A DNA stretch of 64,000 bases, taken from assembly GCA_963699235.1 (NCBI GenBank), contig OY969424.1, positions 1,914,964 to 1,978,963 on the forward strand, in the 5' to 3' direction. Positions 42,503 to 44,958 of this stretch are shown piece after piece. A program made the translations under genes and the position numbers. The number at the start of each line of letters is the position of its first letter. Position 1 is the first letter of the stretch. The DNA comes from an uncultured Chloroflexia bacterium (GTDB lineage: Bacteria > Chloroflexota > Limnocylindria > QHBO01). The notes beneath the pieces are model-generated. The model ran no database searches. It was not told the DNA's origin and saw nothing but the letters and a program-made list of their open reading frames with translations.

Positions 42503-43582
42503 TCAGGTGGACGATGCGCAGAGGCGGGCCGTCATCTCGATCGCCTCGAGGGCGTCCTCTCGCGTCCGACGCCCAAGCCCACAGGACGATGCGACATCGG
42601 CCGTCTGCCCGAGCAGCTCATCCACGCGAGTCATGAGCGTTCGATGCTCGTCCGCGGTCCGCTTTTCGTGGACGAAGCCGGCGATGAACCGCGTCCCTCC
42701 CGGAAGGACGAGGTTCCTGAGCGGCTCGTAGAACTCGACCTCCAGGGGCGGTGGATCGGCGGCGGCGGCGAGCGGGGCATGAATGAAATCGAGCGGGCGA
42801 CCGGCCGGCCAGCGCTTCACGATATCGTTCGACATGCGGACGATGGGCCCGACGTGCGGCAGCCGTCCCATCGCGCGGTGGTTGAAGTCGCCGAGACACA
42901 GGTGGATTCCCCACCGCGATCCCTCCGGCGACTCCCGGGCGAGGCGGGCCACGCCGCCCGCGAGATAGCCGGACGCGAGTCCGTGGAGGACACCGGGAAT
43001 CCGGGTCAGGGCGACAAGCTCGACGGGGATCTCGACCTGGAACACGACGTCATCACCGGCCTCCGCGTGGATGGCAGTGATGTCCCGGAGGGTGGCATCG
43101 CGAAAGGCATCACGAACTCGGATCCCGGCGATCGGGCTGCCGAAGGCCGACACGGCGAGATCGAGTTCGCCGGGGATGCCGACCTGGAACCGGGGCTTGA
43201 CCCCATTGCCCGGCACGTGGAACGCGTCCCGTTGGCGAACGAACTCGGGCCACGAGGCGCGGAACGCGCTCAGGTAGCCGAAGTCGAAGGAATCCCCCGT
43301 GAGCTGGTGGCCCGAGCGGACCTTGAAGCTCGGCGTCCGGTCGTAGTCGGTGTAGTCAAAGTCCTCCGGTTTCCCCTTCTTGCCCTCGAGATCGGGGTTG
43401 TTCCAAAACGACTGGATCAGGGGCTGAATCCAGTCCTTCCGGCTGCCCGTTTCGCCGTCGGGGACGGTGCGCAGGTGCGTGCCCAGCTTGTTCGCGAAGA
43501 TACCGATCGCTTCTGCGGTGTCGGAGAAGGGCGTGCTGCCCACGAGGTGGGCAGCACGGTTGGTGGCAGTGGCGGGCGACAT
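42503..43582 (-). CDS. core-MetE-like (cobalamin-independent methionine synthase C-terminal-domain-like) protein, paralog 2
   Basis: 359 aa with LVGSTPF, PDGETGSRKDWI, a Zn-ligand-like IHLCLGDFNH and SSCGLGRR. AGGAGGA lies before the ATG. It is about the same length as, and collinear with, the upstream paralog. Confidence 0.6.
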   Translation of the reverse strand: MSPATATNRAAHLVGSTPFSDTAEAIGIFANKLGTHLRTVPDGETGSRKDWIQPLIQSFWNNPDLEGKKGKPEDFDYTDYDRTPSFKVRSGHQLTGDSFDFGYLSAFRASWPEFVRQRDAFHVPGNGVKPRFQVGIPGELDLAVSAFGSPIAGIRVRDAFRDATLRDITAIHAEAGDDVVFQVEIPVELVALTRIPGVLHGLASGYLAGGVARLARESPEGSRWGIHLCLGDFNHRAMGRLPHVGPIVRMSNDIVKRWPAGRPLDFIHAPLAAAADPPPLEVEFYEPLRNLVLPGGTRFIAGFVHEKRTADEHRTLMTRVDELLGQTADVASSCGLGRRTREDALEAIEMTARLCASST

Positions 43583-43625
43583 TCCTCGTCCTCCTATCGG
43601 CCCCGCGGGGCGCCGCCCCCGCAGC

Positions 43626-44714
43626 TCAGGCCGGGGTGAGCACGCGGCGGGGCGCCGCCAGCTTGGCGTGGAGGTCGAGCAGGCCCGGAATCTCCTCCGT
43701 CTGGGCGCGGGCCATCCCGCACTCGGTGCAGACGCCCCACTCCTGTTCCTCGCCGGAGTTGGGCCGCCAGGAGGCGGCGTGCTCGTCGATGAGGGCGATC
43801 TGGGCGGCGCTGGTTCCCTCGGGCTGGTCCGCCACGTGGTACGGCACGATCCCGAAGTAGACCTCGGTCCCGTCCTTGATCCGCAGCTCGGCCAGCGGGG
43901 CGAAGTACTCCGGTCGCGTCTCGTTTTGCGGAACGGTGATCGCGAACCAGTTGACGGTGCGCCGCGCGTTCGCGTTGACGTGGCCGATGAGCTCGACCTG
44001 GAGGGCCAGGCTCTCGGGCTCCTTGAAGTGGACGTGCTGGTAGTCGCCGTAGCAGAGGTGCAGGCCGGCCGGGATCTCCGGCGGCACGGCGTCGACCAGC
44101 TCGCCCAGGACGCGGCCGGCCTCGGCGGGGGTCAGGTCCGGGAATCCCGGGAAGGAGCCGGTCAGCGCGCCGAACTCGACGGCGACGTCCCATTGGACGG
44201 CGATGTCGTCGTGGGGGATCTCGGCCAGCAGGCGATTGAGGTCACGGAGCATGGCGCCCGTGTACGCCGGCAGGACGGCCGGCACCTGATCCGGTACGAA
44301 CCAGCCCGCGGCGGTGGCGAACGGCGTCGGGTACTGGACCTGGAAACGGACGTTCTCTGGGATGGTGCCGTCCTTGCGGAGGGCGGTGAAGATGCTGTAG
44401 CTCGCCAGGTAGGCATCGGCGTAGCCGGGGTTGAAGGTCCGGAAGAACTCGTCGAGGACGGACTCGTCGGTGATCTTCAGCTTCGGCAGGCCTTCGTAGC
44501 CCCGGGTTGGATCGAATGTTCCGACGGTCTCGACGCCCGGCAGCGCGCTCAGGCGGTTGACCTGGAAGAAGATCCAGTTGTTCCGCTCGCCGGTCTCGCC
44601 GTCCGGGATGCGCTTGACGCGGTCGCCAATCCGGGTCGCGATCTCGCGCATCGCGGTCTCGGCATCGGCGACGGCCAATCCGCCGTTCAGGTGTGCGCCA
44701 ACGGGGTTCGTCAT
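43626..44714 (-). CDS. core-MetE-like (cobalamin-independent methionine synthase C-terminal-domain-like) protein, paralog 1
   Basis: 362 aa with PDGETGERNNWI, LHLCYGDYQH (resembles the MetE HxCY Zn site) and CTECGMA (resembles the MetE C-terminal Cys site). It is preceded by a SAM-riboswitch-like leader. Confidence 0.6.
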   Translation of the reverse strand: MTNPVGAHLNGGLAVADAETAMREIATRIGDRVKRIPDGETGERNNWIFFQVNRLSALPGVETVGTFDPTRGYEGLPKLKITDESVLDEFFRTFNPGYADAYLASYSIFTALRKDGTIPENVRFQVQYPTPFATAAGWFVPDQVPAVLPAYTGAMLRDLNRLLAEIPHDDIAVQWDVAVEFGALTGSFPGFPDLTPAEAGRVLGELVDAVPPEIPAGLHLCYGDYQHVHFKEPESLALQVELIGHVNANARRTVNWFAITVPQNETRPEYFAPLAELRIKDGTEVYFGIVPYHVADQPEGTSAAQIALIDEHAASWRPNSGEEQEWGVCTECGMARAQTEEIPGLLDLHAKLAAPRRVLTPA

Positions 44715-44721
44715 GACGGTA

Positions 44722-44810
44722 CTCCCATCGTTCCTCGCAGGGGCACCGCTCCCATTGGGTCGGTTGCCGGGCCGTCAACGAGCGAGGTCTCTCGGGCCAC
44801 TCTGGATAGG
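44722..44810 (-). promoter_or_regulatory. SAM riboswitch candidate (SAM-I / SAM-IV clan), translational type
   Basis: The minus-strand RNA reads CCUAUC-CAGAGUGG-CCCGAGAGACC...GACGGCCC-GGCAACC-GACCCAAUGGGAGC-GGUGCC-CCUGCGAGGAAC-GAUGGG-AG, then 7 nt, then AUG. It contains the clan-conserved AUCnAGAGnGG junction, a GAGnGAC kink-turn-like element, the GGCAACC/GGUGCC P3 stem and a P1 pairing (CCUAUC/GAUGGG). The 3-prime strand of P1 overlaps the GGGAG Shine-Dalgarno. Confidence 0.6.
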
Positions 44811-44882
44811 CATCGCGCGTGCGCGACCGCCCCATGGTACCCGCTGGCCACGGATGGCGTGGCGACTACAATCGGGCGGTCG

Positions 44883-44958
44883 GCGGGAGTAGCTCAGTTG
44901 GCAGAGCGTCAGCCTTCCAAGCTGAATGTCGCGGGTTCGATCCCCGTCTCCCGCTCCA
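44883..44958 (+). tRNA. tRNA-Gly (anticodon UCC), CCA encoded
   Basis: GCGGGAG acceptor stem pairs with CTCCCGC. D arm is GCTC-AGTTGGCA-GAGC. Anticodon stem TCAGC/GCTGA carries loop CTTCCAA. T arm is GCGGG-TTCGATC-CCCGT, followed by discriminator T and CCA. Confidence 0.9.

Follow-up and report, generated by a model that had tools for sequence, protein, structure and literature searches.

The described systems closest to the element reported here are the riboswitches of the SAM-I (RF00162), SAM-IV (RF00634; cryo-EM, PMC6890682) and SAM-I/IV (RF01725) families. Members of the RF00162 alignment vary chiefly through deletion of P4; the alignment holds an Actinomycetota group with a very short or absent P4 and accepts natural P4-less members (PMC12714719). 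An aptamer can still work when P4 is missing, and aptamers designed to lack it show a response to SAM (PMC12714719), while affinity for SAM is reported to drop as P4 shortens (Heppell 2011, as cited in PMC12714719). Some described SAM-I riboswitches have their ribosome-binding site within the 3' strand of P1 (PMC2258182). SAM-I/IV riboswitches have no P2 internal loop and no PK-1, and carry a 3' hairpin and PK-2 (PMC2864571, PMC6890682).

The window, by which we mean the whole stretch of DNA analysed, is 64 kb of a 2.09-Mb single-contig genome of Candidatus Limnocylindria (Chloroflexota). Going by sequence, we consider it very probable that the leader of one gene in it, which we call P0001, is a functional SAM-I-type riboswitch that is reduced to a three-way junction of P1, P2 and P3 and that would work as a direct translational OFF switch on P0001. 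Loss of P4 in SAM-I and a Shine-Dalgarno sequence hidden in P1 are already known. What is new for the P4-less form is the lineage, Limnocylindria, and the class of target gene.

The window aptamer is like SAM-I in its ligand core, its P1-P2-P3 topology, its predicted kink-turn-type P2 loop, PK-1 and the Met/SAM gene context. It would also share the OFF logic, and it has the ribosome-binding site in P1 as in PMC2258182. Unlike the SAM-I four-way junction with P4, it has a 12-nt linker that joins P3 to P1. It differs from known P4-less SAM-I riboswitches in its host, in a hairpin (P0) 5' of P1 and in the unannotated MetE-fold genes that it would control. P4-less SAM-I elements were also read by eye in sampled Actinomycetota (L140, L142, L157, L158), some of them with a Shine-Dalgarno sequence in or next to P1.

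Family assignment and anatomy

The minus-strand leader of ORF 43626..44714 has the sequence UGCCUAUCCAGAGUGGCCCGAGAGACCUCGCUCGUUGACGGCCCGGCAACCGACCCAAUGGGAGCGGUGCCCCUGCGAGGAACGAUGGGAG-UACCGUC-AUG and contains the clan motifs AUCCAGAGUGG and CGAGAGACC. The features of the locus, from 5' to 3', are as follows.

44834..44839, minus strand: candidate -10 box TACCAT, kept amid diverging flanks in L132 and L134 (orthologous leaders)
44812..44827, minus strand: P0 hairpin of 6 bp, GUCGCG/CGCGAU with loop CACG; it stops 1 nt short of the P1 5' strand
44722..44812, minus strand: SAM-I-type aptamer without P4, 91 nt (RF00162 45.6 bits; R2 91.7 bits)
44805..44810, minus strand: P1 5' strand CCUAUC, pairs with 44724..44729
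44769..44800, minus strand: P2, with P2a GGCC/GGCC, internal loop CGA opposite GUUGAC and P2b GAG/CUC (SAM-I alignment without non-canonical flags)
44783..44787, minus strand: PK-1 5' strand CCUCG in the P2 loop, pairs with CGAGG at 44733..44737
44742..44768, minus strand: P3 GGCAACC..GGUGCC and a three-pair distal stem CCC-AAU-GGG (sequence, SAM-I alignment)
44730..44741, minus strand: J3/1 linker CCUGCGAGGAAC, 12 nt, in place of J3/4-P4-J4/1; carries the PK-1 3' strand CGAGG (44733..44737)
44724..44729, minus strand: P1 3' strand GAUGGG (sequence, SAM-I model alignment, covariation)
44722..44726, minus strand: Shine-Dalgarno sequence GGGAG, three of its G's within P1, 7 nt to the AUG (44714..44712)
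43626..44714, minus strand: P0001, 362 aa, MetE-like TIM-barrel fold (fold match; no Pfam or NCBIfam family)
43580..43614, minus strand: relic of a second riboswitch before P0002, with P3 3' strand, linker, P1 3' strand, tail and Shine-Dalgarno sequence
42503..43582, minus strand: P0002, 359 aa, paralogue of P0001 (27% identity); its orthologues L023, L106 and L107 have their own P4-less SAM aptamers

Two Rfam matches in the window lie over the gathering score (cmscan): tRNA-Gly(UCC) at 44883..44958 on the plus strand and SAM-I at 44722..44812 on the minus strand. The SAM-I match covers model positions 1-108, and its E-value is 3.4e-7 when the 64-kb window is searched and 2.6e-9 when the genome is searched. 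Its 45.6 bits exceed the gathering score of 44.4 by 1.2 bits only, and a lineage-specific covariance model, R2, gives the same aptamer 91.7 bits. Searches with RF00162 and with the lineage covariance models found no other SAM-I match in the 2.09-Mb genome. In the RF00162 alignment, the 17 consensus positions of P4 are reduced to 1 nt. The ligand-core motifs AUC..AGAG, GCAACC, GGUGC and GAU are intact, and the ligand-pocket sequences in P1, J1/2 and P3 are invariant among 36 members from the lineage. Judged by these matches, the element is a genuine riboswitch of the SAM-I clan in a P4-less form.

The first-pass annotation had placed this leader in the SAM-I/SAM-IV clan and had proposed to run the covariance models of the clan on it. 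The SAM-I model passes its curated threshold, which bears out the clan and narrows it to SAM-I; the SAM-IV and SAM-I/IV side of the proposal did not hold up. With SAM-IV the window aptamer shares a junction without P4 and PK-1, and most Limnocylindria relatives have a pairing between P3 loop and 3' tail that resembles PK-2. With SAM-I/IV it shares the clan, the ligand core and the missing P4 inside the junction. However, SAM-IV scores 25.2 bits at this site, far below its gathering score of 38, and reaches 19-21 bits on the relatives with the PK-2-like pairing, while SAM-I/IV has no match in the genome at E <= 10. The window aptamer also has no P5 hairpin, no other hairpin 3' of P1 and no PK-2, its P3 loop is 3 nt long, and it has a P2 internal loop (of SAM-I type) and PK-1, both of which are missing in SAM-I/IV (PMC2864571, PMC6890682). 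Membership in SAM-IV or SAM-I/IV instead of SAM-I is therefore very improbable, and family membership in SAM-I is established.

A sequence reading confirmed the anatomy that had been proposed. The listed motifs, including GGCAACC...GGUGCC and CCC-AAU-GGG, are all on the minus strand at the positions given for them, P1 has 6 bp with one G-U pair (CCUAUC/GAUGGG), and there is no internal P4 between P3 and P1. The GGGAG overlaps the P1 3' strand as described. The absence of a downstream hairpin was also noted correctly, since the start codon comes only 9 nt after the aptamer and leaves no room for one. Two features had been overlooked, PK-1 (CCUCG/CGAGG) and the P0 hairpin. The P2 loop, CGA opposite GUUGAC, aligns to the loop of the model and fits the 3-nt bulge and tandem G-A of the SAM-I kink-turn, as far as geometry can be predicted from sequence. 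The P3 loop is AAU, UAU or AUU among orthologues with the stem retained; in relatives P3 is longer and has CCUC in its loop.

Single-sequence folding of the aptamer is no better than that of shuffles (z = 0.37). An alternative minimum-energy fold has -41.2 kcal/mol vs -31.8 kcal/mol for the nested consensus, in which PK-1 and the ligand are not counted.

Standard annotation barely detects the P4-less Limnocylindria form. Five of 11 relatives that we aligned score below the RF00162 cut-off (38.7-41.7 bits), and L069 and L026, which are clear members before P0001 homologues, are missed by Rfam at the gathering threshold.

Covariation and selection among relatives

Five families of the class were sampled by Rfam and model searches of related genomes, and three of them have the P4-less architecture. 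Family f2 of the class has ordinary SAM-I with P4 (59-87 bits). A search of the class with R2 gave 22 strong matches of at least 66.9 bits, and P4-containing SAM-I matches reached at most 49.6 bits. In the phylum-wide and Actinomycetota searches the model acted mostly as a sequence profile, and matches were judged by eye. Aptamers of the lineage precede metK (L115, L118), P0001-type genes and P0002-type genes.

We looked at covariation in 22 hand-checked P4-less aptamers and in a second set of 36 distinct sequences from the same class. In the 22 aptamers, 90.6% of cells are paired vs 32-42% in slid registers, and 15 pairs have compensatory changes vs 5.4 in shuffles. In the 36 aptamers, 86.8% of cells are paired vs 35-43% in slid registers, a figure that understates pairing in P2a and distal P3, where the variable parts are loosely aligned; there are 60 compensatory cells vs 22 in shuffles. 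Because the compared aptamers share ancestry, the shuffle statistics treat them as more independent than they are. P1 has two pairs with compensatory changes among relatives (CG to GC and UA to CG), and the P2a pairs covary as well; the P1 and P2 covariation rests on few diverged lineages. P3 is also among the helices with compensatory changes in the lineage set.

PK-1 is paired in 97-99% of cells, and three of its five pairs are changed on both sides (CUGG/CCAG, CUCG/CGAG, UCAG/CUGA). It occurs in three versions: CCUGG/CCAGG, CCUCG/CGAGG and UCAGC/GCUGA. A covarying structure is established by these comparisons.

Four orthologous short-form leaders are available, those of the window, L015/L025, L134 and L132. 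In each orthologue comparison 2 of ~89 aptamer positions differ (98% identity), against 69-70% identity at the gene's third codon positions between the same orthologues. This difference indicates strong purifying selection, and hence an element that is in use. The aptamer changes are either in the P3 loop or replace a U-A pair of PK-1 by U-G.

We considered whether the window copy could be a decaying relic that no longer senses SAM, has lost P4, distal P3 and the PK-2-like pairing, and leaves P0001 constitutive. It has lost ~11 nt of P3 and ~8 nt of tail compared with the sister copy L023, an undoubted relic lies 1.1 kb downstream in the same genome, and P4 shortening reportedly lowers affinity (Heppell 2011, as cited in PMC12714719). 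The conservation of the aptamer speaks against decay, as do the few changes and where they fall, the compensatory changes that maintain P0 and the ligand-core bases, which are all intact. We think decay is improbable and keep to a functional riboswitch.

Probable translational control, P0 and the loop-tail pairing

Family membership and gene context suggest that the element binds SAM and switches translation off, by the following route. PK-1, between P2 loop and linker, would hold the three-way junction of P1, P2 and P3 together, with P0 preceding it, and SAM would occupy the conserved pocket between P1 and P3. Binding would stabilise the weak 6-bp P1, whose 3' strand holds G's of GGGAG. With the Shine-Dalgarno sequence, whose position is established, held in P1, the 30S subunit would be excluded and translation of P0001 would be off. 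At low SAM, P1 would open and the ribosome would outcompete it. P0002 would probably be affected through a shared transcript. The nearest-neighbour energy of P1 is -5.8 kcal/mol and that of the Shine-Dalgarno sequence with an assumed anti-Shine-Dalgarno CCUCC is -5.7 kcal/mol; values so nearly equal would suit a switch in which the ligand tips the balance.

We found no terminator at the leader, where the gap between aptamer and AUG is only 9 nt. Together with a Shine-Dalgarno sequence inside the helix that the ligand would stabilise, this leads to the reading of a direct translational OFF switch. The aptamer could instead be functional with control mainly on the transcript, through Rho-dependent termination, mRNA decay after translation stops or P0-dependent stability. 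Such control would fit with P0, which lies where the mRNA is predicted to begin (5'-terminal hairpins commonly protect from decay), and with P0002, which has its own exposed Shine-Dalgarno sequence, so that regulating both genes together would take an effect on the transcript. However, the missing terminator counts against it, the Shine-Dalgarno sequence inside P1 suffices for direct control, and effects on the transcript would come on top of occlusion, not instead of it. We give control mainly on the transcript very little chance.

P0 is the other feature that sets these aptamers apart. A P0 of at least 5 bp that ends within 3 nt of P1 is present in 33 of 35 P4-less Limnocylindria aptamers, compared with 46% in shuffles (mean z -1.6), and in only one of 11 P4-containing SAM-I leaders of the same class. 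In the P4-less leaders it has 5-7 bp and ends 0-2 nt before P1, and its sequences are mutually unrelated between leaders. In the orthologues L132 and L134, P0 is preserved despite changed bases, which are compensatory. It was not consistently found in the Actinomycetota P4-less examples, and it is not part of the SAM-I model. We infer that P0 may stack on P1, or it may merely protect the mRNA 5' end. We found no earlier description of a covarying P0 that adjoins P1 in nearly all aptamers of a lineage.

The candidate -10 box TACCAT could possibly set the transcription start near the first base of P0, and TAnnnT boxes are found at equal distance in the leaders of relatives. A promoter scan of the minus strand gave no full sigma-70 consensus. 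The distance from the aptamer to the tRNA-Gly(UCC) gene, which is transcribed divergently, is 70 nt, and a promoter-like TGGCCA-16-TACAAT lies before this gene at 44845..44872 on the plus strand. The synteny of the tRNA gene is preserved in L015 and L134, not in L132.

The long-form relatives (L016-L024, L026-L114; for example L111:1501-1598 and L019:1501-1602) nearly all have a P3 loop CCUC(A) and, after P1, a tail with the complementary Shine-Dalgarno sequence GAGG. Loop and tail pair as UCCCAC/GUGGGA in L111, CCUCGA/UCGAGG in L019, CUCAACA/UGUUGAG in L017 and UCCUC/GAGGA in L106 and L113, and some of these differences are compensatory. The mean loop-tail helix is 4.5 for each aptamer's own strands vs 4.2 for mismatched loop-tail pairs, a modest support; the difference is small because both partners are conserved. 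The pairing is like PK-2 of SAM-IV, yet these relatives lack a P5 hairpin. We found no earlier description of this pairing between a CCUC P3 loop and the Shine-Dalgarno sequence.

In the window copy both strands of the PK-2-like pairing are gone, since P3 is cut to CCC-AAU-GGG and the tail is shortened. The GGAG that follows P1 in sister copies is the Shine-Dalgarno sequence in the window copy. A pairing of the window P3 loop with codons 5-6 (CCAA/UUGG; CCUA/UAGG in L015) looked compensatory and was dropped when we found it absent in L132.

One might go further and see the Limnocylindria P4-less aptamers as a separate SAM-clan architecture between SAM-I and SAM-IV, with P0, PK-1 and mostly the PK-2-like pairing and without P4 or P5. 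We put this forward tentatively, as a possibility that we do not favour. In the same tentative scheme P0 would replace the helix that stacks on P1 in other families, and the window copy would be a minimal derivative without PK-2. If true, P0 and PK-1 would be the only additions that the SAM-I core needs in order to work as a bare three-way junction.

Full SAM-I, the P4-less form with P0 and the PK-2-like pairing, the P4-less form with P0 only and a truncated relic make up a natural series that could show which peripheral elements the SAM-I core requires. The lineage-specific P0 and the PK-2-like pairing of the relatives are leads.

Probable target genes and the relic of a second riboswitch

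The first-pass annotation had called the gene behind the leader core-MetE-like. The resemblance to MetE holds at the level of the fold, while PF01717, the family that contains core-MetE, is unmatched even at E = 10. Even with permissive thresholds, neither P0001 nor P0002 matches a Pfam or NCBIfam model; for P0001, a search of Pfam, including PF01717 as the MetE catalytic domain, gave nothing at E <= 10, and its sequence profile gave only spurious repeat-protein matches in the PDB. The homologues of P0001 number more than 1,800; they come mostly from Actinomycetota and Chloroflexota, and almost every one is annotated "hypothetical".

The AlphaFold model of P0001 (pLDDT 85.6) matches structures of MetE, the cobalamin-independent methionine synthase, in Foldseek with E-values of 1e-7 to 1e-5 (1ypx, E = 1.4e-7), and its TM-score with Thermotoga MetE is ~0.6. 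H219-x-C221 and C332 are invariant and resemble the MetE zinc site. P0001 is like MetE and MesA-D/core-MetE (PMC7857596, PMC7005905) in its TIM-barrel, in its His-x-Cys and C-terminal Cys and, with ~360 aa, in the length of the core enzymes, but it matches neither PF01717 nor any NCBIfam model.

Neither PF01717 (MetE) nor PF02574 (the MetH/BHMT homocysteine domain) has a match in the genome, whose completeness estimate is 89%, and this makes P0001 and P0002 plausible methionine synthases. The riboswitch before P0001, together with metK under aptamers of relatives, supports a role of the P0001 family in methionine synthesis. The two paralogues are candidates for a kind of methionine synthase not described so far. 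The switch is a functional lead to this MetE-fold family, which can be tested as a further type of methionine synthase.

Among P0001 homologues the aptamer is confined to Chloroflexota (15 of 80 loci). Sixteen homologue loci without the aptamer motif, mostly labelled Actinomycetota, have no Rfam riboswitch.

P0002 is probably co-transcribed with P0001, and we infer that the two would be regulated together. We tried the idea of an obligatory pair like that of split MetE and rejected it, as a paralogue is found in the flank of 0 of 80 homologous loci. The adjacency of P0001 and P0002 is not conserved, so they are not a split-MetE pair of the kind described (PMC7857596, PMC7005905).

The spacer between P0001 and P0002 is 43 nt and houses the relic. 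The relic, GGCGCCCCGCGGGGCCGAUAGGAGGACGAGGAAUG, matches in alignment the final third of the L023 riboswitch, which is complete and stands before a P0002 orthologue in the same genus. Its P1 3' strand is GAUAGGAG and the Shine-Dalgarno sequence in its tail is GAGGA. In orthologous contigs P0001 is directly followed by a DinB_2-like gene, which here follows P0002. The relic and the orthologous gene order together indicate that P0002 moved behind P0001 and lost its own sensor. We found no earlier description of a truncated second riboswitch before a downstream paralogue. A G+C-rich hairpin at 43605..43622 precedes the relic.

Several other leaders of the lineage have features of their own. In family f4 (L014, L115, L116 and L118, with genomes of 1.1-1.4 Mb) a P4-less aptamer with P0 lies before metK, and the metK leader of ~100 nt has two further hairpins, an expression platform unlike that of the window. 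Other proteins are encoded behind lineage aptamers in L017, L024, L114; L018, L020; and L016, L111, and they may be further unrecognised members of the SAM regulon. One recurring family among them has the start ..FDGYPYLV(T/V)RI.. and another has ..CHEPWHFLRR... Downstream of the aptamer in L047:1317-1520 come GGAGGAGAUG and, ~100 nt ahead of the P0001 homologue, a short open frame that could be a leader peptide or a different start.
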